From: Bdellovibrionota bacterium
Lineage (GTDB): Bacteria; Bdellovibrionota_C; UBA2361; JBGSMV01
Assembly (NCBI GenBank): GCA_044356455.1
Contig: JBIKWF010000015.1
Coordinates: 1-54,111, forward strand
DNA length: 54,111 nucleotides
Direction: 5' to 3'
Position numbers and translations under genes: made by a program. Under the pieces are notes generated by a model. It was not told where the DNA came from and did not search any database. It saw nothing but the letters and a program-made list of their open reading frames with translations. Below are positions 5,281 through 40,467 of the stretch, piece after piece. Position 1 is the first letter of the stretch. The number at the start of each line of letters is the position of its first letter.

Positions 5281-6111
5281 ATGGAACCCGGAACCCTTGC
5301 AAGCACCCCCCCAAAGAACTCCTTTAATCCTGAGTTCTTGGACCTCGCTCCCGGCTTCGACCCAGAGCATGCCGCGCAGCTTGTCCGTGAACACGGCGTC
5401 GTCGTGCTGCGACAAGTGCTCGACCCCGCCCGGGTTAAGGCGCTAGCCGAACAAGTCACCGCCGCTTTTAATGATCTTGATGCCAGAAAAGAAACCCTCA
5501 ATGAGGCTGATAAGCGGTTACTCGAACGCATGGAGATGCCGGTTCCCGACCGCGACCGGTCCTTTCGGACACGGGTCGAAAATTTTGGTTTGCTTGACTC
5601 ACCCAAACTGATCCAAACGATTGAAAAAATCGCTGGTCCGTATGTTTGGCATTTCCCCCCTCAAGTCCGAAGGCAAAATCCTAAGGCGCAGCATGCGTTC
5701 CTGCCCTACCACCAGGATGCTCTGTATACGCGACATTATAATGAGTTTCGCGTCTGCTGGGTGCCCCTTACGCCTTGCGGCGCAGACGCCCCTGGGCTTG
5801 AGATCGCAATTGGTCACATTGATTATCTGGTGAAGCACGAATCTAGCGGGTCTTGGGAAGAAGGCCTTGCGGAAGAGGAATATAAGCGTCTCGAGTCTCT
5901 CCCGGTTTTTGCACCGGTGCTCTTTCCCGGTGATGTGGTGCTGTTTGATGACAAGACGTTCCATAGGACCTATGTCCCACCAAATGTTTCCAAAACGCGC
6001 TTGAGTTTTGATTTCCGCGCGCCGCCAAGAAACAGTATCAAGGACGAGCCAAAAAAATCCCGCAAATTCGTCGACCCCTATACGAGAGATTATGTCAAAA
6101 AACTCGACTAA
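5281..6111 (+). CDS. Phytanoyl-CoA dioxygenase (PhyH)-family 2OG-Fe(II) oxygenase
   Basis: YHQD (HxD), WVPLT, PGDVVLFDDKTFHRT and RLSFDFR. Confidence 0.8.
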   Translation: MEPGTLASTPPKNSFNPEFLDLAPGFDPEHAAQLVREHGVVVLRQVLDPARVKALAEQVTAAFNDLDARKETLNEADKRLLERMEMPVPDRDRSFRTRVENFGLLDSPKLIQTIEKIAGPYVWHFPPQVRRQNPKAQHAFLPYHQDALYTRHYNEFRVCWVPLTPCGADAPGLEIAIGHIDYLVKHESSGSWEEGLAEEEYKRLESLPVFAPVLFPGDVVLFDDKTFHRTYVPPNVSKTRLSFDFRAPPRNSIKDEPKKSRKFVDPYTRDYVKKLD

Positions 6112-6877
6112 CACGGCGACCTTCGATGGTCGGCCCAACTTAATTAGCCTCGATGACACCATTGAAAAGCGCCTCGAGGAATTTATCGAGAAACACGGGA
6201 TCTCAACGCGCTTGCTGCTTCGCAACTTCCCACTCTTCATGAGAAGAGTGGCGTTAAAGCGCATGCTCACGCACTACGAGCTCTTCCGTATGGTCGTTGA
6301 CCTCCCGGGTGACCTGGTAGAACTAGGCGTATACCGCGGCACGTCCCTTCTCTCCTGGGCTAATTTTCTCGAATCTCGGAATATCGGCGACCGAACTCGC
6401 CGAGTGATTGGGTTTGACAACTTTAAGGGCTTTCGAGAATTAAGCCCCCAAGACGGCCCACCAAGCGAGAAAGCAGGAAAAGTCCCAAGCGGTTTTGATT
6501 GTTCGGATCTTGAAGAACAACTCGAGGAAATGATTTCCATTTTTGATGCCGACCGCTTCGTGCCTCAAAAGCCACGTATCCACCTGATCAAGGGGGACAT
6601 TGAAGAGACAGTCCCAAAGTTTGTGGCAGAACAGCCTGGAACACGAATTTCACTTATTCACTTCGACTGTGACGTATACAAACCAACGCTGTGCGGTCTG
6701 CGCCATCTCTGGCCTCTGGTAGTCGCTGGCGGCGTGGTAATCTTTGATGAGTATGGAATCGAGCCGTGGGCCGGTGAAAGTAAGGCCGCTGACGATTATT
6801 TTGCGGAGATCGGATACCGTCCGAATTGGCGAAAGTTCGACTGGCACGCCACGCCTGGGGCTTATCTAGTCAAATAA
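6092..6877 (+). CDS. TylF/MycF/NovP-family sugar O-methyltransferase
   Basis: PGDLVELGVYRG, GFDNFKGF, HFDCDVYKPT, GGVVIFDEY and WAGE; ATG at 6092 preferred as start. Confidence 0.85.
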   Translation: MSKNSTNTATFDGRPNLISLDDTIEKRLEEFIEKHGISTRLLLRNFPLFMRRVALKRMLTHYELFRMVVDLPGDLVELGVYRGTSLLSWANFLESRNIGDRTRRVIGFDNFKGFRELSPQDGPPSEKAGKVPSGFDCSDLEEQLEEMISIFDADRFVPQKPRIHLIKGDIEETVPKFVAEQPGTRISLIHFDCDVYKPTLCGLRHLWPLVVAGGVVIFDEYGIEPWAGESKAADDYFAEIGYRPNWRKFDWHATPGAYLVK

Positions 6878-6898
6878 TGCTTCACGAGGTAACGAGCA

Positions 6899-7810
6899 GT
6901 GGCTAAGCGCGGGCCGGTTCTAATAATTGGCGGCGATGGTCTTGTCGGGCGTTCACTTGAGATCCACCTTACCCAGGCCGGATATGAAGTGGTCGCTACT
7001 ACGCGCCGGCGTTCAGAACCTACTTCTTCGAATCGGATATTTCTTGATCTTGAGGAGGATCCAACCTCCTATGCGCTCCCCCAAGCCGAGGTCGCCTTTA
7101 TCGCAGCAGGCTGCTCTGGTTTCGAGATGTGCCGAGCCAACCAGGAGCTAAGCACCAAAGTTAATATTACGAATACCGTGGCCTTAGCTTCGCGGCTGAG
7201 CGCGGCCGGCACTTTCATAGTCTTCCTCTCTTCAAGCGCCGTGTTCGATGGGTCTGTGCTTTCGCCTACGGAAAGTGCCGCACCAAACCCAACGAGTGTC
7301 TATGGAGAGCAAAAGGCAGCAGCCGAGGAGCTCCTTCGGCAACTCACGGATCGGCTTGCCATTGTCAGATTCGGCAAAGCAATTCCCCATACCTATCCTA
7401 GATTCATGGCATGGCACGAGCAGCTAGTCGCAGGAAAACAAATTCAAGTCTTACGCGATCTCCTTTTTGCACCGCTCAGCACGAGCTATCTTGTAGAGGC
7501 GCTTCGGAGGATTCACGAAAGGGGGCACTCCGGCGTGTTCCACCTCTCCCCTGAGCACGCAATATCCTATGCCCAAGTCGCTGAGTATATGTGTCACAAG
7601 TACCACCTCGACCCTGCGCTGGTGATCGCAAAGACTGTGCAAGAGAGTGGTCTCTCGATTGAGTATGTTCCAAAGTACGCAACGCTTGGTTGCACAGATA
7701 CTTTTAAGCGCCTTTCACTTCCTGTGCCCCAGGTATGGGATGCGGTTGATGTGGGGCTACCCCCTCGTAGCGCGGCGCCAAGACTCGTTCACGAAGGAGG
7801 CCTGAGGTGA
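6899..7810 (+). CDS. RmlD-like NDP-4-keto-sugar reductase (extended SDR)
   Basis: GGDGLVG Rossmann motif, LSSSAVFDG and YGEQK (YxxxK). Confidence 0.8.
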   Translation: MAKRGPVLIIGGDGLVGRSLEIHLTQAGYEVVATTRRRSEPTSSNRIFLDLEEDPTSYALPQAEVAFIAAGCSGFEMCRANQELSTKVNITNTVALASRLSAAGTFIVFLSSSAVFDGSVLSPTESAAPNPTSVYGEQKAAAEELLRQLTDRLAIVRFGKAIPHTYPRFMAWHEQLVAGKQIQVLRDLLFAPLSTSYLVEALRRIHERGHSGVFHLSPEHAISYAQVAEYMCHKYHLDPALVIAKTVQESGLSIEYVPKYATLGCTDTFKRLSLPVPQVWDAVDVGLPPRSAAPRLVHEGGLR

Positions 7811-8958
7811 GTTCAAACAATTGCGCGCAAGAAGCGTGTCATATCTGCCCGTGCGGGACCGTGGAAGAGATAGCTTCCTACCCCTCGCTTACACGCATAG
7901 CTTCGGACTCCACAGTCTGGAAAATGGGTGGGCGTTTAGGAATATGCACCTCCTGTGGGGCAGTTCAAAAGCCCATTACTCCCGAGTGGAAAGCAGAAGC
8001 GACTGAAATTTATCGGCGCTATAATATCTACCACGTCAGCGGGGGGACCGAGCAGCAGGTATTTGCAGACGGAGCGAGTCTCTCGCGATCGGTGCTCTTG
8101 GTTGAGTTTCTTAAGCAGAACGCACCAGCGCTGCCCGAGAAAGCGAGGCATCTCGACATCGGCTGCGGAAACGGAGCCTTTCTGAGGGGCTTAAGCTCAG
8201 TCTTCCCCTCATGGGATCTCTTCGGCAGTGAAGTCTCAGAAAAATATAAATCCACGGTGACTTCTATCCCTGGAGTAAGAGACTTCTACACACAAGACCT
8301 TCGTGAGATTCCAGGACTCTTTGATTCGATTAGCTTAGTGCACGTGCTTGAGCATATTGCCTCTCCTGTTTCTTTCCTTGCTGAGGTCAGGTCCAAGCTG
8401 GCCCCAGGAGGCGTGCTCTTTGTCGAAATTCCTTATTTTATCGACAACCCATTCGACCTTCTGATTGCGGACCACAGCACCCATTTCACGCCTAAGGTTC
8501 TCGCCGCAGTGTTGAACCGATCTGGCTTTAGCGTGAACGCTCAGAGCCACCGCTGGGTAGCAAAGGAACTTAGCCTTGTCGCAACTCCGGGCCCCACGAC
8601 GGTGCCTGCGGGAGAAGATCCCCAAGCACTTAAGGAGCGCATAGAAGTATCGATTGAGTGGCTACGCAGCGTGCTCTCTCTCGCTCGCTCAGGGAAAGGC
8701 AAAATCGGCATTTTTGGGACGTCGAATGCCGCGGCGTGGCTCTATGGGGAATTACGTGGAGAAGTTCAATTCTTTGTAGATGAGGATAAGACGAAGATTG
8801 GGAAGCTCCTTCACGGGAAGCCAATTTTTTCGCCCGAGGAAGCGCCGAGGGATGCTCCCGTAGTTTTTCCGCTGCCGTACCCCATTGCCTCTGAGGTGTC
8901 TCAGAGACTTGAAGCAAGAGGAGTCAAATTTGAAAAGCTGCTACCCCCTCGCCTTTAA
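7807..8958 (+). CDS. Class I SAM-dependent methyltransferase with N-terminal Zn-ribbon (sugar C-methyltransferase-like architecture)
   Basis: CHIC/CTSC Cys pairs, LDIGCGNG, HVLEH, and a C-terminal IFGTS...FFVDED Rossmann-like domain. Confidence 0.8.
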   Translation: MSSNNCAQEACHICPCGTVEEIASYPSLTRIASDSTVWKMGGRLGICTSCGAVQKPITPEWKAEATEIYRRYNIYHVSGGTEQQVFADGASLSRSVLLVEFLKQNAPALPEKARHLDIGCGNGAFLRGLSSVFPSWDLFGSEVSEKYKSTVTSIPGVRDFYTQDLREIPGLFDSISLVHVLEHIASPVSFLAEVRSKLAPGGVLFVEIPYFIDNPFDLLIADHSTHFTPKVLAAVLNRSGFSVNAQSHRWVAKELSLVATPGPTTVPAGEDPQALKERIEVSIEWLRSVLSLARSGKGKIGIFGTSNAAAWLYGELRGEVQFFVDEDKTKIGKLLHGKPIFSPEEAPRDAPVVFPLPYPIASEVSQRLEARGVKFEKLLPPRL

Positions 8959-9017
8959 GACGCGGGGTGCCATAAGAAGGATACGATTACTCAGAACTTC
9001 CAATCAGGGAGGAGCTT

Positions 9018-9578
9018 GTGCCCACTAAATCTGCGCTACATGAACAACGTCCCGCCCAAGCTGAGTTTAACACAGAGGACATCTTCGTGGTCTCTCCGGC
9101 CTATCTCGAGAATCTTAAAGCAAAAGCCCTGCAAACCGCGAATGGACGCTATCGCGTATGCCTGCATTCCTCTACGGAAGAGCTCGTACAGAATATGGTC
9201 ATTGTTTTGGCAGAGAATTCTTACGTTCAGCCGCATCGCCAACGACCCGGGAAATCTAAAGCGTACCATGTGATGGAAGGCCAACTCAGCGTTGTCTTAT
9301 GGAACGACAAAGGAGAAATTGACCGAGTCCTTGAGCTTGGGGCGAAAGGTACTGGGCTTCCCTCTCTCTACCACCTTTCCAAAAGCATCTGGCATATGCC
9401 CGTGCCCATGTCCTCTGTTGCCGTATACCAAGAGACTTCTACCGGACCATTCGTAAAGAACTGGGACGTCGAGTATTCACCGTGGGCTCCTGCTGAGGAG
9501 AACATCAGTGCAGCCGCTCAATTTCTTAGCGCCACAAAGAGTGCAATCAAATCTCGGCAAGGAGCCGCAGCGTTATGA
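9018..9578 (+). CDS. WbuC-family cupin-fold metalloprotein
   Basis: RYRVCLH, VQNMVIVL, YVQPHRQ and IWH pattern, in a polysaccharide gene context. Confidence 0.75.
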   Translation: MPTKSALHEQRPAQAEFNTEDIFVVSPAYLENLKAKALQTANGRYRVCLHSSTEELVQNMVIVLAENSYVQPHRQRPGKSKAYHVMEGQLSVVLWNDKGEIDRVLELGAKGTGLPSLYHLSKSIWHMPVPMSSVAVYQETSTGPFVKNWDVEYSPWAPAEENISAAAQFLSATKSAIKSRQGAAAL

Positions 9579-10711
9579 GCATCGTGCCACCAGCTTCGAA
9601 CCAAGCTCGCATCCCCTTCTGCGACCTCCGCGTTACGGATCCGGAAATGCTGCAGCGATTACTTGCGAGAGTTTCCACCGTGCTCACACACGGCAGACTG
9701 CTTCTTGGCCCCGAAGTTGAGCAATTAGAGGCAGCAGTTGCGACGTATTGCGAGAAGCGCTTTTGCGTGGGAGTCGGCTCAGGAACGGACGCAATCTATG
9801 TAGGACTTAAGGCCCTCGGCATTGGCCCCGGAGATGAAGTGATAGTTCCTGCCCTCTCATGGATTGCCACCGCAAATGGGGTGCGCATGACGGGAGCAAC
9901 CCCCGTTTTCGCTGATATTAAGGAAGACCTGAATATTGACCCTGACTCGGTGCTATCTCTGATTTCCCCCCGAACGAGGGCAGTAATGCCAGTGCATTAT
10001 ACCGGCTTACTCTGCGAGATAGAAAAACTTAGAGAGCTCTGCAAGCCGCGCGGCATAACCCTGGTAGAAGATGCCTCGCAATCTTTTGGAGCCACGCGTC
10101 ACGGCGCTCGCGCAGGGAGCTTTGGTGACATGGCCTGCATTAGCATGAACCCGATGAAAGTTTTTGCCGCCTGCGGAGAAGCGGGCGTCGTTCTTACCGA
10201 TGACCCCACGATTGTCGACAAGCTCAAAGCTCTCCGATACAACGGCATGATAAATCGCGAGCTCTGCAATGAGCCGGGGTTAAATTGCCGAATTGATACT
10301 CTCCAGGCCGCAATTCTGCTGGAACGTCTTCCTCTTGTTGATGGAATCATAGAACGCAGACGCGAGATTGCCGCCCTCTATCGCTCGCTGATAAAGGCCC
10401 CCGTGGTGCATCCGCTTGAACCGAAAGGAGATAGGCATGCCTTCTACGTCTATACGGTGAGCGCTCCGCGCCGAAAGGAGCTCTCAGATCACTTGGAGCG
10501 CTATAATATTGAGGCGAAGGTGCGAGATCCCATCCTTATGCCTGACCAGCCTGCCTATCGAGTGGGGGTACAAGGAACTTTCCCGCGCGCACAGCGCCTC
10601 GTGGGAGAGCTAATTTCATTGCCCTGCTTTGAGGGCCTTAGCGACCTTCAAGTTCGTAGAGTGTGCGAAGTGGTCAATGATTTTTACCACGCGACCTCTG
10701 TTTCTCGGTAG
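9575..10711 (+). CDS. DegT/DnrJ/EryC1/StrS PLP-dependent sugar aminotransferase
   Basis: SGTDA, GPGDEVIVP, PVHYTG, EDASQS, SMNPMK (PLP lysine) and GEAG. Confidence 0.92.
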   Translation: MSIVPPASNQARIPFCDLRVTDPEMLQRLLARVSTVLTHGRLLLGPEVEQLEAAVATYCEKRFCVGVGSGTDAIYVGLKALGIGPGDEVIVPALSWIATANGVRMTGATPVFADIKEDLNIDPDSVLSLISPRTRAVMPVHYTGLLCEIEKLRELCKPRGITLVEDASQSFGATRHGARAGSFGDMACISMNPMKVFAACGEAGVVLTDDPTIVDKLKALRYNGMINRELCNEPGLNCRIDTLQAAILLERLPLVDGIIERRREIAALYRSLIKAPVVHPLEPKGDRHAFYVYTVSAPRRKELSDHLERYNIEAKVRDPILMPDQPAYRVGVQGTFPRAQRLVGELISLPCFEGLSDLQVRRVCEVVNDFYHATSVSR

Positions 10712-10742: not shown

Positions 10743-11639
10743 ATGGCAATCACGGACTATTACGGCAACAAGCCAGGAACCACCTATCTGGAGATGTACG
10801 CCGAGTCGAATTCCGGGACAGGAAAGATTATTCATAGGCAACTGAAGGATCAGGAGGCCTATGACGCGTGGCATCTTCAATACTATTTCAAGGAGCTTCT
10901 CAATGATCGTGAGCTCTTCAGAAGAGAATCGCTCACGTTTTCTGAGATTCCCCGAAAAGAGAAGAATATCTTCCTCTATTTACTCCTTCTGACCACACCT
11001 CACGCAGTCGACATTGCGGAACTGGGAAGCTCCCTTTTTGAAATGATAGATGGACTCTACGTTGCCCAGAAATATTTTCTCAGTGCGAGGCCCGACCTTC
11101 CCGCACTTGACCTCGGAAGGCTCCGCTTTCACGGAATCGAACTCTCCGAATTGCTTGCACGCGCATCCAAGGAGCTACACCCCTCAGCCGCCATCACCAC
11201 CTATCCCCATGTCAATGCCTATCAGGGCAAACCAGATATTTTGTACGACCGCAGCGTTTCAAATTATGCGTTCGAGAATTCAGCAGAGGTGGCTGAGTAC
11301 TTCAATCGGGCTCAGGTGACCTTCGCCAATATCTATGTCTCCAAAAATGAGACTTTCTCGGTTGAACGCGTCGGAAAACAGATGGTGTATTTTTCGCTTA
11401 AAGAGCTGCTCGGGCTCCTCAACAAGCCTCTTTTCCACCTCTTCGGAGAAAAAGTCCCCGGCCCCCTCTCCGGTCAGGAACTGAGTAAAGGTCGGCCCGT
11501 AGTTGAAGGATTCTTTCTATGTGCAGAACACGAGGTAGCGCAAAGGATGATGTCTCTCGCAAAGAGCACTCCTGATCTCGCCCACTATTTTCAGGAAAAG
11601 GGCATCGCGCTGCGTGAGGCGCAAGTGCTCCTTAGTTGA
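10743..11639 (+). CDS. Hypothetical protein, possible divergent SAM-methyltransferase fold
   Basis: Long ORF in operon position; IAELGSS and FHGIELS resemble methyltransferase motifs I and II. Confidence 0.55.
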   Translation: MAITDYYGNKPGTTYLEMYAESNSGTGKIIHRQLKDQEAYDAWHLQYYFKELLNDRELFRRESLTFSEIPRKEKNIFLYLLLLTTPHAVDIAELGSSLFEMIDGLYVAQKYFLSARPDLPALDLGRLRFHGIELSELLARASKELHPSAAITTYPHVNAYQGKPDILYDRSVSNYAFENSAEVAEYFNRAQVTFANIYVSKNETFSVERVGKQMVYFSLKELLGLLNKPLFHLFGEKVPGPLSGQELSKGRPVVEGFFLCAEHEVAQRMMSLAKSTPDLAHYFQEKGIALREAQVLLS

Positions 11640-13999
11640 ACACTTAACGCTTCTAGTGATTGACGCACCTCATGATGGGCATTGTTTTCTCCAAAGAGAT
11701 TAAGGAGCACTCGAGCTGCGGTTCGAATGTCCCCCATCTCTGCGTACAGCATTGCCGCGGCATGCAGGACCTCCACACGCCACGGCTGGATGGCGCAGAG
11801 CTTATCGAGATGCCTGCGTGCCTCTACATAATTGCGCTGACATGAATACGCGAGTGCCGCAACAAGTAGCGGCTCTGGCACATCGGTGACAAACGCGAGA
11901 AGCGGCGGCAGCCGTTGCAGAGCGGCTTCTATTTGCCCAGCCGATACTAAGGCTCGAATCGCTTCGGTTTCCGCAACATATTCTGGATTGCACGCCCGCA
12001 CATTTTGAAAATAGCTAAGAGCTTGTACTGTCAACCGATGAGCTTCGCTTGACTCGGGGAAGATCCTGAGCAGTCTCTCCGCAACGGGGTAAATACCGCC
12101 TGCGACGAGAAGCGTGGGCAAGAGAGGTTGGTATTTCATGGTCAAAGGAGCCAGCGCGTGGACATGGATATGCTGAGGTAGAAGTGCAATGGCTCGGTGC
12201 AGTACTCCTTCCGCAATTGACGTGGGGAGCTCGGTGAGAAGCTGGTCAAGGGGAGCGAGGATGTCGCACAAATCTATCGAAGTGCTGCGATGAGGTAGTT
12301 GAAAGATGCTCGTTCTGCGTACCTTTTCATGACCGACGACCAACCCACGGGGTACTGAAACTGCTCCGGACCTAAGAATGGTGCTAAAGAGCAGCGCCAA
12401 AGAGCCATAACAACCTACTCCGTAGCTCCACGTACAGTGCTCAAGAGCACTGCGCTTCAGAAGTGCCTGGCTAAGCGCGAAAGGAACGTCAGAGAGGTCG
12501 CTACGGCCTAAGGTAAGCATGACTCTAAGGGGATCTAAATAGGCTTCTGCACCGGAGAGTACGCGGTCAATGAAATGAGCCATCTCGAATTCTGACTTCT
12601 CCAAGCCTATACGATTTGCGAATGCCGCCTCCGCTTCAGGGAAACATTCAAGCGCCGAAAGAAGCGCAGGGATGAATCGCGGCCTGCGAGAAAGAGTGTG
12701 TCTATCAGCAAACATGAAAAATGCCGCGTTCGATTGATTGAGGGCAGATTGAGCAAGCTCTCGCGACATACTTCGAAAAATACCTGGAATAACTTTGCAG
12801 TGCGAGGGAAGTCGCGCAAGGCTCGCGGCCGAGGACTCGTAGCCTCTAACAATAAGTATCTCCGTGTCCGGGGGGCACCAGGTGGCGAGTTGATTCCACA
12901 TGGCGTGAGTGCACTCTGCCTCAGTCTCAATCCAGAAGAGAAGCGCGGTAGAGCGTGGTGCCAGAGTTTTCGGACGCGGTATAGGGGCCTCGATTAAAGA
13001 CAGGGCTTCTTCAAAAGTTTTCTTAGCGTCCTGTTCAATGGCAAGCCACTCTGCATCGATTTGGTCGGCATGATACCGAATAGGCACCCTGACAGATGAA
13101 AGCTGCTCGGGAGATGCTTCCGTTCTTGCAAGCAGCGCTATCTGAGCCTTGCAAAGCGGAGGGCAATTCATATCAGGCAGCATGTACTCTGGATTCGACA
13201 GCTCGTAGGCGCAGTAGTCGTCGGAGTCGCTGATGACTAGTGGCGCAATTCCAGGACAAGCCTCATAGAGGTAATCCCTATCAATCGTAGAGGTGAGAGG
13301 AACTTCGGGATGAGTGGGATAGATATAGATAGGCTGTAAGTGAAAAATGTATATTAAATGCCCATTCGTCCCCATGTTCCACCATACCAGCGAGGGGTAC
13401 GCGTTACCGACGGGATTCCCCCAGCGGAGCACCTCGGTGGCAGGATGAAGATGATTTGAGGCAAAGCGAACCAGCTCACGAGGAGAAAACACTTTGAGCG
13501 ATCCACCGGGCATGAAGCGAGATCTAAGTTCCTCGGTTATCGAAGTACGGTTAAGTCGTTGTGCAGCAACACCAACAACCCGATTTCCCTGCAAGCCTTT
13601 CATGGCAATGCCTACAAGAGCGCCATCGGCATACAGCACGTCGGGGGCAAGAAAAGAAAACGCAGCATTAGACGCTCGTCCCTCTTCGATGAAGGCTGCA
13701 TGGCAGAGAGAAAAGTTTAGGTGGTGATGTTTCTTCTCCGTATCTACCCCTTGAATGTCCTCGAGGAAGCGTATGACGACCGGGAGAGTTGAAGATAATT
13801 TTTGGAATGAGGGGGTAGCCTCAAGCGCGGCAAGGTCTTCTTTCTTGGTGTAGAGCCAAAATGAGCAGGGATACATAGTGCGCACCGCCGGCAAATTGCT
13901 AGGGTAGAGCATGGTTTGGAGCCCAAACTCCGCGAAGTACTTCGTAAAGGTCGCCCCCCAGACGACACATACGAATCTTATTTCGGCCGGTGAATTCAT
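11591..13999 (-). CDS. 'VWG' family putative glycosyltransferase (paralogue 2) with C-terminal TPR
   Basis: VVWGATF...PSNLPA, APDVLYADGAL, HLHP and DSDDYC; TPR-like helices at the C-terminus. Confidence 0.65.
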   Translation of the reverse strand: MNSPAEIRFVCVVWGATFTKYFAEFGLQTMLYPSNLPAVRTMYPCSFWLYTKKEDLAALEATPSFQKLSSTLPVVIRFLEDIQGVDTEKKHHHLNFSLCHAAFIEEGRASNAAFSFLAPDVLYADGALVGIAMKGLQGNRVVGVAAQRLNRTSITEELRSRFMPGGSLKVFSPRELVRFASNHLHPATEVLRWGNPVGNAYPSLVWWNMGTNGHLIYIFHLQPIYIYPTHPEVPLTSTIDRDYLYEACPGIAPLVISDSDDYCAYELSNPEYMLPDMNCPPLCKAQIALLARTEASPEQLSSVRVPIRYHADQIDAEWLAIEQDAKKTFEEALSLIEAPIPRPKTLAPRSTALLFWIETEAECTHAMWNQLATWCPPDTEILIVRGYESSAASLARLPSHCKVIPGIFRSMSRELAQSALNQSNAAFFMFADRHTLSRRPRFIPALLSALECFPEAEAAFANRIGLEKSEFEMAHFIDRVLSGAEAYLDPLRVMLTLGRSDLSDVPFALSQALLKRSALEHCTWSYGVGCYGSLALLFSTILRSGAVSVPRGLVVGHEKVRRTSIFQLPHRSTSIDLCDILAPLDQLLTELPTSIAEGVLHRAIALLPQHIHVHALAPLTMKYQPLLPTLLVAGGIYPVAERLLRIFPESSEAHRLTVQALSYFQNVRACNPEYVAETEAIRALVSAGQIEAALQRLPPLLAFVTDVPEPLLVAALAYSCQRNYVEARRHLDKLCAIQPWRVEVLHAAAMLYAEMGDIRTAARVLLNLFGENNAHHEVRQSLEALSVQLRSTCASRSAMPFS

Positions 14000-14428: not shown

Positions 14429-15436
14429 ATGATTGATTCACCGGATGGAGTGACCGCTCAGAACTTAGCAGCAGAGTTCAAGGACATAGAAGCCAACCTC
14501 AACTTCAAATCGATCGATGAGGCCCTTCATTTCCCCCGCTTCGTGCAAATTGAGACCACCAGGCTTTGCAACGCAAAATGCCCCTTTTGTGCCATTGAAA
14601 AATGGGACAAATCGGTGCCGCTCATGTCGGATGTTCTATTCGACAAAATTGTAAATGAAATTAAAGATTACGCGCCCTGGATTCGCTGGGTAAACATCCA
14701 GAAAGCTGGCGAACCAATGATTGATAAAAAGATCTGCAAGAGAATTAAACAGGTCAAAGATGCAGGCATTAAGATGGTCACCCTTTCGACCAATGCTTCG
14801 CTACTAAACGATAAACGCTCCCGTGAACTTATTGCCTCAGGCCTCGACGAGATCATGTTCTCCATCGATTCCATCGAGAAGAAAGAATATGAGGAGATGC
14901 GCGTGGGGCTTAACTACGAAGAGGTTATGGAGAATATCCACAACTTCTTTAAACTGCGGAATGAGCTTCGTCCTGAAATGATGATCCGCGTGCGCGGCGT
15001 TTCTTTCTTCGACCTTACCGATGCACAAGAGAAAGCAAAACTTGAAGCCTGGGAACGATATTGGGCTAAGCTCATGAAAGACAACGACCGCGTCTACATG
15101 AAGAAGGCTCATAACTGGGGAAATCAGAAAGCCTGGGACGGCCATACTCCTCAGTACCACGATATTTATCACCCCTGCATTATTCCCTGGTCAACTATTA
15201 CCATTTCCGCCATGGGCATCGTGGGACTATGCGTGCAGGATTACGATTCGACCCACAACCTTGGCGACGTCAACAAGCAAACTATTGCAGAAATCTGGAA
15301 GGGCGAGGGCTGGCAGCGCATTCGTGAGCTGCATGCGACTGGTCGACGAAATGAAATCGAAATGTGCCGTGGATGCAGGTTGTACGACAAAGCGCACAGC
15401 ATGGAGAAGGACAACGTAATTTTGCGAGGACTGTAA
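14429..15436 (+). CDS. Radical SAM / SPASM(twitch) domain protein
   Basis: CNAKCPFC (CxxxCxxC), GEP, STNA, and C-terminal CIIPW...GLC...CRGC. Confidence 0.9.
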   Translation: MIDSPDGVTAQNLAAEFKDIEANLNFKSIDEALHFPRFVQIETTRLCNAKCPFCAIEKWDKSVPLMSDVLFDKIVNEIKDYAPWIRWVNIQKAGEPMIDKKICKRIKQVKDAGIKMVTLSTNASLLNDKRSRELIASGLDEIMFSIDSIEKKEYEEMRVGLNYEEVMENIHNFFKLRNELRPEMMIRVRGVSFFDLTDAQEKAKLEAWERYWAKLMKDNDRVYMKKAHNWGNQKAWDGHTPQYHDIYHPCIIPWSTITISAMGIVGLCVQDYDSTHNLGDVNKQTIAEIWKGEGWQRIRELHATGRRNEIEMCRGCRLYDKAHSMEKDNVILRGL

Positions 15437-15661: not shown

Positions 15662-16597
15662 TTGTTGAAAGAGCTTATGGAACATCCCTCAAGCGATGAC
15701 CTCGCGATGATGCTGCTCATTCGGCGAGCTGAAGAAACTCTTCTACAATTATTCTCGGAAGGTCGTCTCAACGGCACGGTACACACGGGCATCGGCCAAG
15801 AGTCATGTGCCGTCGGAGTCCTCTCTGCTCTTGAACTTTCCCGCGATATTGTCGTTTCAAATCACCGCTGCCATGGGCATTTTCTCGCTTACGGTGGCCC
15901 TCTTACAGGTCTCTTTGCTGAGATTATGGGAAGAGTATCAGGAATTTGCCATGGCGTTGGGGGAAGCCAGCATCTTCATTTCCGCAACTTTTATTCAAAC
16001 GGAATCCTTGGCGGAACGATTGGCATGGCGACCGGCATGGCCTTCGCTGAGAAACAAAAGGACACGGGCGCACTCACCTGCGTCTTTATGGGTGATGGTG
16101 CCCTCGGAGAGGGACTCGTCTACGAGTCCTTCAATATGGCAGCGCTTTGGAAATTGCCAATACTTTACGTGATTGAAGCAAATGGCATCGCGCAAAGTAC
16201 GCATACGCTGCGGACGACAGCAGGCAACATCGCGGATCGCCCCCACGCGTTCGGGATTCCCACGCAAGAACTTCCTCCCTCACCCCCGAAGACTATCGCA
16301 AACACCGCGCGAGCACTCGCCACTGAAGCGCGAAAGGGAGTTGGTCCGCAGTGCCTTATCCTACAAACCTACCGATTAGGCCCTCACAGTAAGGGGGATG
16401 ACGACCGCAGTAAGGAAGCACTTCTGCAGGCCCGGGAACAGGATATCCTGACGCGCCTGCTCAAGGAGCTTTTGCCTGAACAAGTGGATGCACTTGAGAC
16501 ACAAGTCGCAAGTCTCATTACGACGGCCCTACTCGAAGCTGAAAAGGGAGAGATGCTCAGCGAGAGCGCTATGCGGGGGCTCTTCCATGGCGCCTAG
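15662..16597 (+). CDS. TPP-dependent 2-oxoacid/acetoin dehydrogenase E1 alpha subunit
   Basis: HTGIGQE, SNHRCHGH, GGSQH, GDGALGEG...N TPP motif and HSKGDD. Confidence 0.92.
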   Translation: MLKELMEHPSSDDLAMMLLIRRAEETLLQLFSEGRLNGTVHTGIGQESCAVGVLSALELSRDIVVSNHRCHGHFLAYGGPLTGLFAEIMGRVSGICHGVGGSQHLHFRNFYSNGILGGTIGMATGMAFAEKQKDTGALTCVFMGDGALGEGLVYESFNMAALWKLPILYVIEANGIAQSTHTLRTTAGNIADRPHAFGIPTQELPPSPPKTIANTARALATEARKGVGPQCLILQTYRLGPHSKGDDDRSKEALLQAREQDILTRLLKELLPEQVDALETQVASLITTALLEAEKGEMLSESAMRGLFHGA

Positions 16598-17600
16598 CAA
16601 AGTCACCTTTCTTTCATCTTTAAATGCAGCCTTGCATGCCCTGTGCGCAGCCGACCCGTCCGTATACCTTCTAGGAGAGGACATTACCGACCCCTATGGC
16701 GGGGCATTTAAGGTAACGAAAGGCCTTTCATCGGCGTATCCTGAGCGCGTCTTCTCAACCCCAATCAGCGAGGCCGGAATTGTGGCTCTTTCGGGAGGCA
16801 TGGCCCTTAGGGGCCTGCGCCCAATTGTAGAAATTATGTTCGGCGATTTTATTGCCCTATGCGCCGATCAGATTCTAAATCACCTCAGCAAGTATCCTTT
16901 CATGTATGGGCAGCCAATCAAGGTACCTGTCGTCATCAGAACTCCCGTGGGAGGTGGCCGCGGCTACGGTCCCACCCATAGCCAGTCTCTTGAGAAACTT
17001 TTTTTGGGGGTTCCAGGCCTTAAGGTAATTGCGCCCTCCGTCTTTCATGTCCCTGGCCAATGCCTTATCGCAAGCACAAAACTCAATACCCCCGTACTCT
17101 TCCTTGAGCATAAACTTTCCTATCCCGAGGAGCTTTTCACTACGGAGAGCGCTCCAGAGCTTACCTTTGAGCGTGGGGAGGAAGAAGCCTTCCCCACTGC
17201 TCGGCTTAGAAATTTTTCCTCTGGCAGCGCTGAAGTTTCCTTCGTGTGCTACGGCGGGAGTGCCCTGCTCCTTAGGAAAGTTCTTACCCGCCTGGCTCAG
17301 GAAGAGATCTCTGCCCAAGCTTTTGTGCCTTCGCTCCTTAACTCGAAGAATCCCTCTTTTATCCAGGAATGCGCAGCTACTACGACCCGCGGCTGCATAC
17401 TCGTTGAAGAGGGCACAGAAGGGTTTAACTGGAGCTCAGAAATTGCCAGCCGCATCCAAGGAAGCAGCACGCAAAAGCCCATAGCTATCACTCGCATCTG
17501 CCCCACCATGCCGATTCTACCAACTTGTAAGAGCGCAGAGAGTGCCATCTTGCCCTCTGCCGAGAAGCTCGTGCATGCTGCCTTCAAATTAATTTCCTAA
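16587..17600 (+). CDS. 2-oxoacid dehydrogenase E1 beta subunit (transketolase C-like)
   Basis: GEDITDPYGGAFKVTKGL, TPISE, EIMFGDF and GPTHSQS; ATG 16587 overlaps the end of E1 alpha. Confidence 0.92.
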   Translation: MAPSKVTFLSSLNAALHALCAADPSVYLLGEDITDPYGGAFKVTKGLSSAYPERVFSTPISEAGIVALSGGMALRGLRPIVEIMFGDFIALCADQILNHLSKYPFMYGQPIKVPVVIRTPVGGGRGYGPTHSQSLEKLFLGVPGLKVIAPSVFHVPGQCLIASTKLNTPVLFLEHKLSYPEELFTTESAPELTFERGEEEAFPTARLRNFSSGSAEVSFVCYGGSALLLRKVLTRLAQEEISAQAFVPSLLNSKNPSFIQECAATTTRGCILVEEGTEGFNWSSEIASRIQGSSTQKPIAITRICPTMPILPTCKSAESAILPSAEKLVHAAFKLIS

Positions 17601-17612
17601 GCGGTGCGCGGC

Positions 17613-18725
17613 ATGAAGCAAATACCTGTTCCGCAGATTAATGCGAATGAAACTTCAGCCAAGCTTGCGCGAATTCGCGCAGCCGGACCTGTGGAAGCAG
17701 GGGAAATCGTCGCCGAACTTGAGAGCTCAAAGTCTCTCGTTGATGTTCACACCGATACGAAGGGCTTCTTTCAGCCAGTCGCTCTTGTGGGCCAAATGGT
17801 CGAGGTAGGCTCCCTACTTGGAGTAGTGAGCCAAGAACCGCTTTCCCAGGATGAGCTCCTCAAGCTATGCGCGCCTCCCACTCCTTCGGTAACGGGCGCC
17901 AATGAATCCCTGCGCTGGACAAAAAAGGCTGAGCTGCTCGCCCAAGCCAATGGGATAGATATTGCATCTCTGGTTACGGAGTCAGGTACCGTTAAAGAAG
18001 CCGACGTTCAGAAGGCCCTCAAGTTAAAGGCTTCGAAAACAACCGACATGCCACTGCGCTATGCGGGAAGCACGAATCCCGATGCCAAGCGGCTGCTTAT
18101 CCTGGGCTCCGGCATGGCAGCGATGCAGGTGCTTGATGCCGTGAGCCGCATTCCCACCCTTGTGCCTTGCGGGATTCTTGATGACGACCCCAAGAAGTTG
18201 GGAAGTAGCGTCTTTGGAGTGAAGGTCTTGGGCCCACTTTCTCTTGCCGACGAGCTCTGGAGCAGTGCTCAGTTCGATGTTGCCGTATGCTTGCTCACGA
18301 ATAACCGTGAACTTCGCCGCAGCCTATTCTCCAGGCTTCAAGACAAGAAGATTCCTTTTGCAAATGTGATTGACCCTTCGGTGCTCATACAATCTCAAGT
18401 TAACTTCGGGCAGGGAAATGTAATCCTGGGTCAGAGTTTTCTTGGGCTTTGCTCCGAGGTAGGGAACAACAATTTCATGAGCGGTGGAACACACCTCGAG
18501 CATCACAATAAAATTGGAAGTCACAACACCTTTGGTCCGGGCGTCTTCACTTCTGCGGCAGTTCACATAGGAGATAACGTAAAATTTGGCACAGGGATTT
18601 TCATCGAGCCGCACGTTGAGATAGGCAATGAATGCGTGGTGGCATCGGGAAGCATTCTCACAAAGTCAGTGCCGCCTCACAGCATTGTTAAGATGAAATC
18701 TGTAACCACTGTGGTGAGCAAATAA
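17613..18725 (+). CDS. Lipoyl-domain + peripheral-subunit-binding domain + PglD/NeuD-type left-handed beta-helix sugar acyltransferase fusion
   Basis: VPQINANE...GEIVAELESSKS...G (lipoyl hairpin Lys); TKKAELLAQANGID...GTVKEADV (PSBD); LLILGSG...GILDDD...GVKVLG (PglD N-domain); hexapeptide repeats with LEHH. Confidence 0.8.
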   Translation: MKQIPVPQINANETSAKLARIRAAGPVEAGEIVAELESSKSLVDVHTDTKGFFQPVALVGQMVEVGSLLGVVSQEPLSQDELLKLCAPPTPSVTGANESLRWTKKAELLAQANGIDIASLVTESGTVKEADVQKALKLKASKTTDMPLRYAGSTNPDAKRLLILGSGMAAMQVLDAVSRIPTLVPCGILDDDPKKLGSSVFGVKVLGPLSLADELWSSAQFDVAVCLLTNNRELRRSLFSRLQDKKIPFANVIDPSVLIQSQVNFGQGNVILGQSFLGLCSEVGNNNFMSGGTHLEHHNKIGSHNTFGPGVFTSAAVHIGDNVKFGTGIFIEPHVEIGNECVVASGSILTKSVPPHSIVKMKSVTTVVSK

Positions 18726-18771: not shown

Positions 18772-19536
18772 CTATCCCCGCTTCTTCACCAGCAACGTGA
18801 GTTCCATACTTACTCGCGTCCTTTGACCTTGGTGAGGTACGCCGCCGTGTAGAAGATTCTCGTGGAACACGAGGCAATCTCCGGGCCGGCTATTAAAAAT
18901 ACGAATATCTATTTTGCTTTCATCTTCTAGAATCTGAGGTTTCATCACGCCGTGGCGATGCTCAGCGCGGTATTCCCACTCCCTAAGATGCGAACCCGGA
19001 ACATACTTGAGGCCACTTACCCCCGTTTCGACATGGATTGCGGACCAAACTTTCACGGTCTCGGTCCCCGCGGGCCACGTTACGTTTGAAACTCGGTGGA
19101 ACCAAATGTCGGCGTGAAGGGGTCCGACATCTTCAGGGTGATGCGGCCTCACCAGCCTCCATATCAGCTCTTCATGCCCAACATTCTCTTCATCAGAAAT
19201 AGCAAAGGGGCCGAATTCTTCGGTCAATCTCTTGAATACTGAGAACTCGCGAATTTCATTCTTGGCACTTTCAGGCAAAATGCGCTCAACCTTGGGCCAC
19301 GTCTTTACGTGATCCAAAAGATGAGCCTTTTCATGATACCTATCGAGCCCAAGGGCTGCGAATTCATCGACGTGTTGGGGAGCACAAACCGAAATGCGCC
19401 GAAGATACTGGGCCGTAATAAGCTCTCGCACGCGGGCAAGCTCCTCGGGTGTAAAACTCAGCATGAGCGAGCAGCCCATGTCCCCAAATACGGCTTCCCG
19501 GACCGATTCATGTTTCATTTCTGCTGGAATTGCCAT
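18772..19536 (-). CDS. PhyH-family 2OG-Fe(II) dioxygenase
   Basis: WRLVRP, GPLHAD, PGSH, LLHGG and RVSMELT; start uncertain (19518/19536/19584). Confidence 0.8.
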   Translation of the reverse strand: MAIPAEMKHESVREAVFGDMGCSLMLSFTPEELARVRELITAQYLRRISVCAPQHVDEFAALGLDRYHEKAHLLDHVKTWPKVERILPESAKNEIREFSVFKRLTEEFGPFAISDEENVGHEELIWRLVRPHHPEDVGPLHADIWFHRVSNVTWPAGTETVKVWSAIHVETGVSGLKYVPGSHLREWEYRAEHRHGVMKPQILEDESKIDIRIFNSRPGDCLVFHENLLHGGVPHQGQRTRVSMELTLLVKKRG

Positions 19537-19608
19537 AGATGCTCCGAAACAAACATAAGCTGCAGGCGTATCTCCCACTATCACGAGAACTATTATTCTG
19601 AAAACTAT

Positions 19609-22435: not shown

Positions 22436-24760
22436 ATGAGTTATCCGCAGCGAGTGAAGGTAGTAATGGTGGTGTGGGGTACGCGCTTCACCCGCTTTTT
22501 CCTTGACTACGCACTCCCTTCCCAACTCTCTGAGGGCAACCTTCCCGCTCTCGCGCGTGGAACCAATTGCTCGTATCACTTGTACACCAGGTCGGCTGAC
22601 CTTGCGCTCATAGAAAGTTCAGACGCGTTCACTCGGTTACGCTCCTTGATGCCTATCGAGATAGTACCGACCGAGCGCTTCCTTACCGATGAATTCTTAA
22701 ACACGAAATCACATCAGGCGATGAATGCCTGTCACGCGCATTTTACTTCTACCCAATTTGAGCAAGGGGTCGCCTATATTTTCATGGCTCCTGACGCGAT
22801 CTGGGCTGATGGCAGTCTTCAACACATTGTTGACGTACTTCCCGATTATGATCTTCTTTTCGGCGCCGCTCCTCGCATCGATTCGACCTATTTTCCGCAG
22901 AATCTTGACTCACGTTTTCCGCTCATCGCCGGCGTGCGCACGATACCTCCGCGCGGTCTTGTGAGCGTCGCAGTGCCGCAGCTTCACCCCGAGCCAAGAA
23001 GTCTTCTATGGGAGCGCGAGGAGACGAACCCCCATTGTGTATTCCTGCTTTCTGAAGTTCCAGAGAACGGAATCGTCGGAAGAGTTTTTCACGCCGCCCC
23101 CTACGTGGTGAAGCCGCTTCGAAGCGGCGGCCCCAGCGGGACCTACGATTATGAGTACGCCTTTGGCGCAAACCCACGAGGCCGCGTCTACTATTTTCAA
23201 GACTCTGATGACTTCTGCGTGTTCGAGGTCTCGTCTCCCACGTACGGTTGCATCAGTGTTGAACCACGAGGAAAAACTACTTCTGATTATCTACGCTTCG
23301 CTCGTGCAGCGACCAATGCCACACATCACAAACTGTTCACCTACCAGAATCGTTGGCATGCGAAAGAAATGGATGGTGAATGGTACCGAAAGGAATTAGC
23401 TCTCGACCGGGTCGCGGACGAAGTCCTTACGGCCATAGAAACGAGCCAGCGCGAAAGTCCTAGTTCTCCAGCCAGCGCTCCGCGCATCGTGGTCGTGGTT
23501 GACTCGAAAGGCAGCGCTGAGGAGGGAATTAACTGTTTCAGGCATCTTCTCTCGCAGGAGATCCTTCCTACCACAATCCTATGGCGGCGCTCACTACCAC
23601 TGGATCCAAGATTTCTTGCCCATATTGAATCTTACGTACAGTCAGGCTTTATCAAGATCTGCGAAAGTTCCGATTCACTTCTCACCTTGGCGCTCAAGGA
23701 GCAGGAATCTTGTCCCTACCAATTCCTTTGCATAATTGACGACGCCACCTTGCTGCATCAAGATTTCTTCTCGGTGGGAACAACCGAAGTAGGTGCATTA
23801 ACGCGTCCCCCGCTTTTCGTAAGTGGTTTCACTTCTCAGGCGCGCATGCCTCTTCAAGAGTGGACCGCGGACAACGACCTTCCTTTGCAGAAACCAGAGA
23901 GAGCAGTATGGCTTCCCGCAGACATTGCGAAAGAACTTCTCAAGGTAGGCTTAGCGGAGTTCTTCATTGAACCAAGTACCTGCCTTTTGCGGTCCGATGC
24001 GATACCCATGATTGCTTCACTTGGTGAACTCAACGACGCCGAGGCACAAGTAGTACTGCCCCTCGCTCTTGCACTCTCACAGGGACTGGTCTTTAACAGA
24101 AGGTGCCTTGCAGGAAGACTCTCCGCTTCCGTGGCATCCACCTGCGCTCGCACCAAGGCGCTGGGGCTCGCACCTTGGAGAATTGCCCATTTTCTCTCGC
24201 AATCTTCTATTCTTGCAGCCATGCCCTCCCATGAGTTTGTGCGCATCAGGCCTGAGATAAATCAAGATCTTTCTCCCCAATTTGCGAGTTTCCTCATGGA
24301 ATCTCTCCCCTATGTCATGCAGAAGCAGACACCCGCTCTCAATAATGATGAAATTTTTGTCAGATTCGCCGAAAGCTTCCAAGATCCTGAACCTACCTCT
24401 TTGCTCTTTTTTTCGGCCGAGCTCATTCATCGCAACTACCAAACGGCATGGGCCTACCTAGGAATGGCGCAAGCCTCCCTACGACTTGGGCAAATTCCCC
24501 TTGTTCGAAAGAATATAGCGGCTGCGGAACAACACAGCGCGGGAAATCCTGACGTACTCAATGGCGCAGCCATGATCCTTTTAAAGTCAGGAGAAGTGGA
24601 GCCTGGTCTTAGGCGATTTCACGAACTGATTGAAAAGTTCCCAAATCATTCCGGAATTAGGACCAATATCACGGGAGTCCTTTCTTCTTTTGACTGGGGA
24701 GCGGTACAGGAAATACCGGCCTGGTTAAGCGATCTTCGCTCACGCGCTTTCCAATCCTAG
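22436..24760 (+). CDS. 'VWG' family putative glycosyltransferase (paralogue 3) with C-terminal TPR
   Basis: VVWGTRFTRFFLDYALPSQLSEGNLPAL, APDAIWADGSL, QLHP and DSDDFC; TPR-like AWAYLGMAQASLRLG. Confidence 0.65.
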   Translation: MSYPQRVKVVMVVWGTRFTRFFLDYALPSQLSEGNLPALARGTNCSYHLYTRSADLALIESSDAFTRLRSLMPIEIVPTERFLTDEFLNTKSHQAMNACHAHFTSTQFEQGVAYIFMAPDAIWADGSLQHIVDVLPDYDLLFGAAPRIDSTYFPQNLDSRFPLIAGVRTIPPRGLVSVAVPQLHPEPRSLLWEREETNPHCVFLLSEVPENGIVGRVFHAAPYVVKPLRSGGPSGTYDYEYAFGANPRGRVYYFQDSDDFCVFEVSSPTYGCISVEPRGKTTSDYLRFARAATNATHHKLFTYQNRWHAKEMDGEWYRKELALDRVADEVLTAIETSQRESPSSPASAPRIVVVVDSKGSAEEGINCFRHLLSQEILPTTILWRRSLPLDPRFLAHIESYVQSGFIKICESSDSLLTLALKEQESCPYQFLCIIDDATLLHQDFFSVGTTEVGALTRPPLFVSGFTSQARMPLQEWTADNDLPLQKPERAVWLPADIAKELLKVGLAEFFIEPSTCLLRSDAIPMIASLGELNDAEAQVVLPLALALSQGLVFNRRCLAGRLSASVASTCARTKALGLAPWRIAHFLSQSSILAAMPSHEFVRIRPEINQDLSPQFASFLMESLPYVMQKQTPALNNDEIFVRFAESFQDPEPTSLLFFSAELIHRNYQTAWAYLGMAQASLRLGQIPLVRKNIAAAEQHSAGNPDVLNGAAMILLKSGEVEPGLRRFHELIEKFPNHSGIRTNITGVLSSFDWGAVQEIPAWLSDLRSRAFQS

Positions 24761-30217: not shown

Positions 30218-30318
30218 AGAGTCTCTTGCCGCAAGAATCGACCCTATTTAGATGCGGTAAAGGAGTGCCTCGGTGCATGAACACGGGGGGTAAACCGAAA
30301 GACCAAAAGCGACACAAC

Positions 30319-30864
30319 CTACTGTAATTGCGATGGAAAATGCTTCTGCAAAGCCTGAGCAATGCCGCTCGCGTTACTCGCCACAACCTCGCCCTTACCA
30401 GGCTCACCCGAAAGGACAAGGTGGGGATTCTTGGGCTCATGCAGCGAAAGAGTTACGCCTACAACATCCTTTCCTTTGCCATAGTGACCCTTCGGGTCAC
30501 GCAAACGCGCAGTCTCAAGACTTACCTTCAGAAATACTTCAAAGTAATTCTTAATATGGGCACGGTTCCATTCCCAAATTTCTGGGTACAGAGACATCGT
30601 GGAGCACACCACCACTAAGCCTTGGTCGTGAAGAAATCGACAAAACCGAGAGAGGCGAAACGCGTTTTGAATACGCTCTGGCTCACTGTGACCTAAGTTG
30701 TCCCCCACTATCTCGCGAACTTCATCGCCATCGAGATGGACCACCGGGTGTCCGAGCGCACGCAGTTCGGCGACAAGGGCCCGCGCGGTAACTGTTTTAC
30801 CAGCCCCAGAGATCCCTGTTATCCAGACTACCAACCCAGCTAGGAGTGTGTCCCGTTGAAACAT
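30319..30864 (-). CDS. Adenylylsulfate-kinase-family P-loop kinase (CysC / Cj1415-like); 5' end altered by MITE insertion
   Basis: VWITGISGAGKT, LDGDEVR and RDPKGHY. Confidence 0.85.
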   Translation of the reverse strand: MFQRDTLLAGLVVWITGISGAGKTVTARALVAELRALGHPVVHLDGDEVREIVGDNLGHSEPERIQNAFRLSRFCRFLHDQGLVVVCSTMSLYPEIWEWNRAHIKNYFEVFLKVSLETARLRDPKGHYGKGKDVVGVTLSLHEPKNPHLVLSGEPGKGEVVASNASGIAQALQKHFPSQLQ

Positions 30865-30952
30865 AAATCCTCATTTTGGACACAATCCGTAGGTAGGCTG
30901 TTCCATTGCCACCACCACATGTAATGCCGGAAATTTTCTGCGGAACAGACTC
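30844..30952. mobile_element. MITE family B (109 bp)
   Basis: Ends GAGTGTGTCCCG / CGGAACAGACTC with CTAG duplication (30840-43, 30953-56); inverted copy at 36092-36200. Confidence 0.8.
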
Positions 30953-31054
30953 CTAGTGAAGACGTGGCCATAAGCGCTATGATACAGAGCGCGCGAGGCA
31001 TGAGCAATCGTATTGAAGACCAACGCGCGCCTCTCTCAAGAGCCAAGGAGATAT

Positions 31055-39978: not shown

Positions 39979-40407
39979 GCTGACAACGAACCTAGCCTAC
40001 TTTTAGTTAGTTAAACAATTAAGGTTTGTTTCACTAGTTTAAAGTGAGCGGGGATTATTTTCAGTGATTTTAATTGGTTAGCTCGATATATTTATGTGAA
40101 TTCACGTGGATCTTTGGCTCGAAACACGATACTTACTGTTTTCGATTCCCGTGAATCCTTATCTAGATGCGCGAGAAGTTTTTTCCCGGCGCACGTGTTA
40201 TTTCGGGTTCTAAGTGGATTCACGAGAAAAATAGGCCTCATTTCACGATTTTTGAGTCCTTTTTGTGTGAAGTTCTTGGTTCTGAGTGGCTCGTGTCTGG
40301 AGATAAAGAATCGTGGGCTTGGTTAAGGTAATGATGGATTTTGGGGCTGAATTTTGCCAGATTCAGCTTCATATCTCGGGATTTTTTACATGAATGCTCG
40401 ATAGCGT

Positions 40408-40467
40408 GCAGTGATATAAGCCGCAGTGATATAAGCCGCAGTGATATAAGCGCGCAGTCACATAATT
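40408..40467 (+). repeat. 15-bp tandem direct repeats (candidate iterons/operator)
   Basis: GCAGTGATATAAGCC twice, GCAGTGATATAAGCG, then degenerate GCAGTCACATAATT, in the repA-parA intergenic region. Confidence 0.8.

Follow-up and report, generated by a model that had tools for sequence, protein, structure and literature searches.

The first half of the three-gene cassette analyzed here, from a Bdellovibrionota bacterium (assembly GCA_044356455.1, contig JBIKWF010000015.1; "the window" is this whole stretch of 54,111 nt), most resembles QncN/QncL/QncM of quinocarcin, SclQ1-4 of scleric acid and RenH/RenI of renieramycin biosynthesis. QncN/L is reportedly a transketolase of two components that uses ketose sugars (PMC6335953, PMC13249901), and ketose phosphates are reportedly converted to glycolyl units by enzymes of this type, the ketose-derived C2 unit being carried on a lipoyl arm. 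The cassette shares with these systems the E1 clade, the absence of an E3 gene, and a lipoyl domain and peripheral subunit-binding domain (PSBD) belonging to the type with an ETSK hairpin; the C2 unit on its lipoyl arm is predicted to have the same origin. Unlike the cassette, the Qnc, Scl and Ren systems keep the E2 core (DHR motif in loci L079-L082 and L085) and pass glycolyl to an acyl carrier protein (ACP) and a nonribosomal peptide synthetase (NRPS), whereas the cassette has a fused sugar acyltransferase domain and a mostly surface-glycan context.

The second half resembles sugar N-acetyltransferases of type I (PglD, PerB, VioB, PglB-ATD, Pcryo_0637) in fold (Z 24-28, root-mean-square deviation [rmsd] 1.4-2.2) and catalytic His. 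Unlike PglD, PerB and VioB, the fusion has an N-terminal lipoyl-PSBD part, and Gly182, Gly199/Pro201, Asn128 and Gly11/His12 are replaced; enzymes of that type act on C-4′ amines, whereas the neighbors of the cassette are mostly C-3′ aminotransferases. With the 2-oxoacid dehydrogenase complexes, namely pyruvate dehydrogenase (PDH), BCKDH and AcoABCL, the cassette shares heterotetrameric-type E1 genes, a lipoyl domain, a linker and a PSBD, but it has E3 only in trans and its predicted output is an amide and not an acyl-coenzyme A (acyl-CoA); because it lacks the E2 core, it would have no cubic or dodecahedral scaffold. An ordinary PDH was rejected on the missing E2 core and the Qnc/Ren clade of the E1 pair. 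LpxA and LpxD are likewise beta-helix acyltransferases fed by a carrier protein, and LpxD with ACP (4ihf) takes a protein-tethered thioester; they rely on a separate phosphopantetheinyl ACP that bears a long acyl chain, whereas here the carrier would be the fused lipoyl domain. The predicted N-glycolyl end group is that of the CMAH and NamH routes, which reportedly hydroxylate an existing N-acetyl group with O2, whereas the cassette would transfer a preformed glycolyl. The cassette pair has a lipoyl partner, which E1 pairs of the AviB1/B2 type are not known to have. In how it would work, the first half of the cassette parallels QncNLM and the second PerB/VioB, but it departs from each, and from the 2-oxoacid dehydrogenase complexes, in a defining respect.

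Judged from sequence comparison, the cassette probably converts a ketose phosphate to a glycolyl-lipoyl intermediate and then to an N-glycolyl nucleoside diphosphate (NDP)-3-amino sugar, with no CoA or ACP and with the host E3 resetting the arm. That a CoA-free lipoyl relay operates, whatever the acyl group, we hold with fairly good confidence.

Domains and distribution of the fusion

15677..16597, forward strand: E1alpha-like subunit binding thiamine diphosphate (ThDP), Qnc/Ren clade; GGSQH and HSKGDD motifs
16587..17600, forward strand: E1beta-like subunit, Qnc/Ren clade; GGGRGYGPTHSQ motif; overlapping at its start with the end of the alpha gene
17613..17849, forward strand: lipoyl domain, fusion residues 1-79; Lys40 in E-S-S-K-S
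17910..18047, forward strand: PSBD, residues about 100-145, behind a Pro-rich linker of low predicted local distance difference test score (pLDDT)
18084..18725, forward strand: Rossmann and left-handed beta-helix acyltransferase of PerB/VioB/PglD fold; catalytic His297 kept

The longest open reading frame (ORF) of E1alpha (15662-16597) opens at a TTG at 15662, with a likely start at 15677, and matched PF00676 (E1_dh; E = 1.8e-48). E1beta lies in ORF 16488-17600 (likely start ATG 16587) and matched PF02779 (Transket_pyr; E = 2e-27); the GDG of the ThDP motif in the E1 pair is invariant. The fusion occupies ORF 17604-18725 (forward strand; likely start ATG 17613; database gene call of 370 aa, P0001). 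A first, sequence-only reading had described E1alpha and E1beta followed by a lipoyl-PSBD-PglD/NeuD fusion without an E2 core, and Pfam, family profiles and an AlphaFold model confirmed this architecture; its remark that the window holds no E3 also stood, none being detected among the 43 window ORFs scanned.

Taken alone, the window fusion gave a borderline lipoyl match (PF00364, 20.4-22.0 bits; cut-off 22.1), Hexapep matches, no Pfam match for the PSBD, and 135 bits against TIGR03570 (NeuD), below the cut-off of 160.8 and stopping at position 196 of 202. The E2 catalytic core (PF00198) and the DHR/DHRxxDG motif were absent from it. Family N-termini matched PF00364 in 29 of 30 cases and E3_binding in 7 of 30. 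Because an N-terminal family profile built from 30 sequences aligns with E. coli E2p (7b9k) over its lipoyl domain, linker and PSBD and also matches the isolated PSBD 1w4i (E = 4e-4), the identity of both domains in the window fusion is settled. The profile scored isolated E2 lipoyl domains at up to 47 bits and biotin-carrier entries at 22-34 bits; a biotin carrier was ruled out by these scores and by the absence of an MKM hairpin. The family hairpin reads E-[TSG]-[STA]-K-[AST], with Met after the Lys in 3 of 324 fusions. In the AlphaFold model (pLDDT 91), the N-terminus modeled as a lipoyl domain, as the sequence-only reading had it (residues 1-79 against PDH lipoyl domain L2, 3crk_C: Z 11.8, rmsd 2.1), and residues 158-362 matched VioB (Z 28.4, rmsd 1.4). 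A complex prediction of the lipoyl domain with the transferase trimer scored 0.00, favoring neither outcome.

The protein set comprised at least 362 distinct proteins among the matches listed; 324 of the 362 had a lipoyl domain and a full transferase domain, and all residue counts refer to these. The PSBD was detectable in 284 of the 324. One protein of the set (P0172, 865 aa) has four matched stretches in a rearranged or repeated architecture, and the match in another (P0108) is labeled as from an archaeal metagenome-assembled genome. Scanning GTDB gave at least 78 loci in about 11 phyla, a lower bound because a single pattern was used. By their record titles, these are Planctomycetota, Chloroflexota, Bacillota, Acidobacteriota, Armatimonadota, Eisenbacteria, Bacteroidota, Pseudomonadota, Actinomycetota, Bdellovibrionota and Verrucomicrobiota; cultured carriers are Chryseobacterium, Actinoplanes, Micromonospora, Catellatospora and Pelagicoccus. 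The fusion thus occurs beyond this assembly. After removal of seven loci in which the contig edge cuts before the lipoyl domain, E1beta was directly upstream of the fusion, ending no more than 400 bp away, in all 71 informative loci, and E1alpha preceded E1beta in all 65 with enough DNA, as expected of the dedicated cassette proposed earlier; alpha and beta were fused to one another in 21 loci. No E3, E2 core or ACP was detected in the 78 loci by queries that did detect them in control loci, although the ACP search used three queries, which divergent ACPs could escape. A plasmid collection searched at E 1e-15 gave no fusion. Current annotation calls the family only "biotin/lipoyl-containing protein" or "NeuD family acetyltransferase."

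Within the phylum of the window, a cassette-type alpha was found in 4 of 124 genomes and was absent from the one genome of the same genus, a patchy spread of the kind expected of glycan genes. The borderline lipoyl score of the window protein and the three loci of 71 with a fusion gene split across frames (L025, L035 and L075) would fit a fusion that arose by chance or is an artefact of assembly or gene calling. This explanation is nevertheless extremely improbable, given the 324 distinct proteins of 362 among the matches listed and the 68 of 71 loci, isolate genomes included, with the gene in one frame. The fusion is a family, not an assembly quirk.

Type of the E1 pair and residues of the transferase

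When annotated plasmids were searched with the window alpha, RenH and several genes from actinobacteria and Paenibacillus ranked level with annotated pdhA or higher. Two of these relatives belong to annotated ACP-E1-E2 gene sets adjoining NRPS-type genes, and two further ones are unannotated with an adjoining E2. With the cassette E1 profiles (alpha/beta), RenH scored 368/388 bits, four ACP- or E2-linked Qnc-type pairs 301-329/321-348 bits, and two PDH-type pairs 222-225/176-204 bits. A FastTree phylogeny of concatenated alpha and beta (596 columns; 40 of about 66 cassette pairs, 5 Qnc-type pairs and 5 outgroup pairs only, without AviB1/B2 and verified AcoAB) placed the cassette and Qnc-type pairs in one clade of 45 (support 0.985), with RenH nested inside as sister to seven cassette sequences (support 1.0). 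Residues common to the cassette and all five Qnc-type pairs include alpha Q97, K238 and D241 and beta R125, Y127 and T130, which are absent or nearly so from the five outgroup pairs; as a guess, alpha K238 and beta R125 bind phosphate. The lipoyl-PSBD profile gave 115 bits for RenI, 78-97 for Qnc-type E2s and 54-74 for other E2s, and an ETSK hairpin was present in four of five Qnc-type E2s. By these comparisons the E1 pair groups with the QncN/L-RenH type, not with pyruvate dehydrogenase, an assignment made through RenH and relatives defined by context.

The sequence-only reading had the E1 pair decarboxylate a 2-oxoacid and took AviB1/B2 as precedent. The former is probably wrong given where the pair falls, and the latter is not the best precedent, because the pair is of the QncN/L-RenH type. 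A relay of the same CoA-free kind in which E1 decarboxylates pyruvate or a different 2-oxoacid, with acetyl or some other acyl group being installed, would fit the best curated E1 matches, which are PDH E1 models below cut-off (TIGR03182, 213 of 394 bits), and the nearest solved E1alpha, that of human PDH; ThDP enzymes are also often promiscuous. We consider it unlikely, because the pair groups with the Qnc/Ren type and has its clade residues and because the genome has other E1 pairs, so that a private acetyl route would be redundant; moreover, cassette-type alphas scored 348-392 bits and housekeeping alphas at most 238 across the 124 genomes, with a clean gap.

A second alternative is that the transferase uses acyl-CoA, that the lipoyl-PSBD part is a scaffold or relic, and that E1 joins carbon to carbon to form a branched sugar, like AviB1/B2. 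Sugar clusters with an E1 pair standing alone do exist, and the loss of motifs need not end CoA use, as the VioB proline illustrates. Lys40, however, is present in 322 of 324 fusions at about 30% N-terminal identity, and the fusion was never seen without an adjoining E1beta where this was visible in the 78 loci. Use of acyl-CoA therefore seems improbable, and the comparative evidence supports a lipoyl arm that is maintained under selection.

Conserved residues of VioB, PerB, PglD and Pcryo_0637, as given in section 3.3 of PMC9271549, were counted in the 324 fusions and in 29 stand-alone homologues as controls. The catalytic His, aligned with PerB His141, was present in 324 of 324 fusions and 29 of 29 controls. 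The whole N-terminal NDP-binding domain is retained: the ribose-binding Asp32 equivalent was D in 311 and E in 13 fusions, and equivalents of Arg72, Gly106, Gly164 and Gly184 were kept in 319, 322, 320 and 309 of 324, respectively. The VioB Gly182 equivalent was Gly in 26 of 324 fusions vs. 27 of 29 controls, and the Gly199-x-Pro201 (GxP) turn was found in 2 of 324 fusions vs. 24 of 29 controls by script (27 of 29 by eye), the controls being top TIGR03570 scorers and thus biased toward the GxP motif. Both are lost in the window fusion. According to the same section, Gly182 packs on the pantothenate of CoA and the G-x-P turn is linked to CoA binding, although the VioB proline does not switch on CoA binding (PMC9271549). 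The equivalent of VioB Gly67 is changed, and H298, E332 and S345 are new near-invariant residues (the family-specific set of the window fusion also has S290). Both the donor side and the acceptor side of the transferase have been remodeled.

These acceptor-side changes and new residues would also suit a beta-helix domain acting as a transthiolase, passing glycolyl from lipoyl to CoA or an ACP in trans, or acylating a hydroxyl or a non-nucleotide acceptor. In the same direction point the Chloroflexota copies, which lie near a PanK-family gene and away from glycan genes, and NeuD, namesake of the family model, which is an O-acetyltransferase. The retained NDP-binding domain, including the Asp32 and Arg72 equivalents, and the lost CoA-associated motifs together with the lack of ACP hits in the 78 loci argue otherwise, as does the position of the cassette in Chryseobacterium (below); we regard this alternative as rather unlikely.

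Acceptor, neighboring genes and the proposed route

5281..9578, forward strand: sugar-tailoring genes (PhyH dioxygenase, TylF methyltransferase, RmlD-like reductase, methyltransferase, WbuC cupin)
9575..10711, forward strand: DegT aminotransferase of the C-3′-type clade; likely maker of the acceptor
14429..15436, forward strand: radical SAM/SPASM gene lying immediately upstream of the cassette; not a core member

A DegT gene lay within 10 kb of the cassette in 34 of 45 full-length loci. In a tree of 43 DegT sequences, 27, including that of the window, formed one clade (support 0.942), to which 21 of 25 DegTs no more than 1.6 kb from a cassette belonged. Four members of this clade matched 2oga, 7b0d, WbpE and QdtB in the PDB better than perosamine synthase or ArnB. 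2oga is DesV, and the best-matching aminotransferases are C-3′ enzymes; NCBIfam typing of the 34 DegTs gave only scores below cut-off. A Gfo/Idh oxidoreductase of the WbpB family was also present in 20 of 26 loci holding a DegT of the window clade. Four Chryseobacterium loci (L050 and L055-57) have the cassette directly between a WbpE-like and a WbpB-like gene; three of them carry a uridine diphosphate-sugar dehydrogenase upstream, and a further beta-helix acyltransferase was not detected within 10 kb. There the cassette occupies the WbpD slot. A separate WbpD-like gene is present in L016 and L017. In L069, the sister of the window DegT (support 1.0) is found 53 bp upstream of E1alpha and, like the window gene, adjoins the cupin.

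The sequence-only reading had linked the cassette to a DegT-made amino sugar, a CoA bypass and an unusual acyl group such as glycolyl. The first gained comparative support from the 34 loci, the second is suggested by the lost CoA-associated motifs, and the third is likely from the E1 clade, while acceptor, bypass and acyl product are all predictions.

By homology, E1alpha/beta would cleave a ketose phosphate, e.g., xylulose-5-phosphate, as QncN/L does, and reductively acylate lipoyl-Lys40 to S-glycolyl-dihydrolipoamide, the PSBD holding E1; hydroxypyruvate as substrate would give the same glycolyl group. The arm would then enter the trimeric beta-helix transferase via the groove that CoA fills in PglD, PerB and VioB, and His297 would activate the amine of an NDP-amino sugar, mostly the C-3′ amine installed by the DegT product, releasing an N-glycolyl sugar with no CoA or ACP step. 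Housekeeping E3 would reoxidize the arm, and lipoate would be attached by host LipA and a LipB/LplA-type enzyme. Outside the cassette, the genome holds lpdA (on another contig), lipA, and an LplA/B-domain gene (PF21948) beside lpdA. The single PF03099 match in the genome was rejected as a lipoate ligase, its motifs resembling BirA, and a PF03099-based ligase screen of the loci is therefore void.

The cassette may have arisen from a Qnc-type E1-E2-ACP cassette in which a sugar acyltransferase domain took the place of the E2 core and ACP. A glycan locus in a related genome (G113, C79; L135:11010-16461), with a Qnc-type E1 fusion, a lipoyl-PSBD-E2 core split by a frameshift, an ACP, a DegT and an acyltransferase of the AAC(3) family, looks like an unshortened version of the cassette and so fits this origin by domain replacement; it possibly makes the same N-glycolyl sugar by way of an ACP relay. 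L010 and L011 likewise have an AAC(3)-family gene, downstream of their cassettes.

Several points weigh against the ketose-to-N-glycolyl route. There was no DegT within 10 kb in 11 of 45 full-length loci, and the window DegT is 4.9 kb from the cassette with an antisense gene in between. Chloroflexota cassettes (L013, L019, L020, L022, L026, L036, L042 and L044) adjoin genes for an aldo-keto reductase and a PanK-family (Fumble) protein; the DNA retrieved around them holds no DegT, and no glycan genes adjoin them. Asn128, "strictly conserved" in PglD, PerB and VioB, was Ser in 284 and Asn in 5 of 324 fusions, the Gly11-His12 pair was replaced (K, R, L and N being commonest at Gly11), and the window fusion has Ala at the oxyanion Gly153 position; the acceptor may therefore not be an NDP-amino sugar. 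The small outgroup of the E1 tree, the clade assignment through RenH and the bias of the controls also count here, as does the phylogenetic clustering of the loci, which are not independent. RenH/RenI, moreover, are given the same role as the Qnc enzymes by homology (PMC13249901).

Only L023 and L069 have a homologue of the radical SAM/SPASM gene beside the cassette, and TylF, RmlD or cupin genes recur there. PhyH-family dioxygenases at 5281-6111 and 18772-19584 and several methyltransferases flank the cassette, and the glycan at the window locus is likely heavily tailored. Three large proteins with a common N-terminal VWG-type motif (2929-4860 and 11591-13999, reverse strand; 22436-24760, forward strand) look like paralogous, unannotated glycosyltransferase-like proteins; Pfam gave no match to them except weak tetratricopeptide repeats. 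The phosphoenolpyruvate-utilizer mobile domain, PPDK-N, adenosine phosphosulfate kinase-like and nucleotidyltransferase genes at 27849-31849 resemble phosphoramidate (MeOPN) pathway genes of Campylobacter capsules. An RPA-family replication initiator (PF10134) lies beside parA and parB at 38116-42293, and the contig also holds fliG and housekeeping genes.

Significance of the proposed route

To our knowledge, lipoyl arms pass their acyl group to a thiol, of CoA or ACP, and if a beta-helix enzyme delivered it directly from lipoyl to an amine, the chemistry would be new for both folds. The chances seem about even that the family is a new class of enzyme, namely sugar N-acyltransferases that depend on lipoyl and whose lipoyl arm replaces CoA as direct acyl donor to the amine, giving an O2-independent route to N-glycolyl sugars. 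No description of a lipoyl-PSBD-acyltransferase fusion was found among the matches listed from the open-access literature, the scope of the search, subscription papers lying outside it. The N-glycolyl routes found there are hydroxylations, and that of the cassette would be hydroxylase-free. A 2008 survey of bacterial glycans describes N-glycolyl substitution as mainly mammalian (PMC2543016). For Tannerella forsythia UB4, another source reports a 350-Da legionaminic acid, possibly N-glycolyl, and its table leaves five genes between legC and a PglD-like gene (BFO_1068-1072) unnamed (PMC5378307); no match bearing the name Tannerella was among the 113 listed for a profile of mostly Bacteroidota fusions, most of these matches having no name. 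If the proposed route holds, it would be a new one to N-glycolyl sugars, rare in bacteria, across about 11 phyla, and 3-glycolamido-hexuronic acids would be predicted where the cassette fills the WbpD slot of wbp-type clusters. The presence of the cassette would then predict the bacteria that have N-glycolyl sugars and the residue that bears the group.

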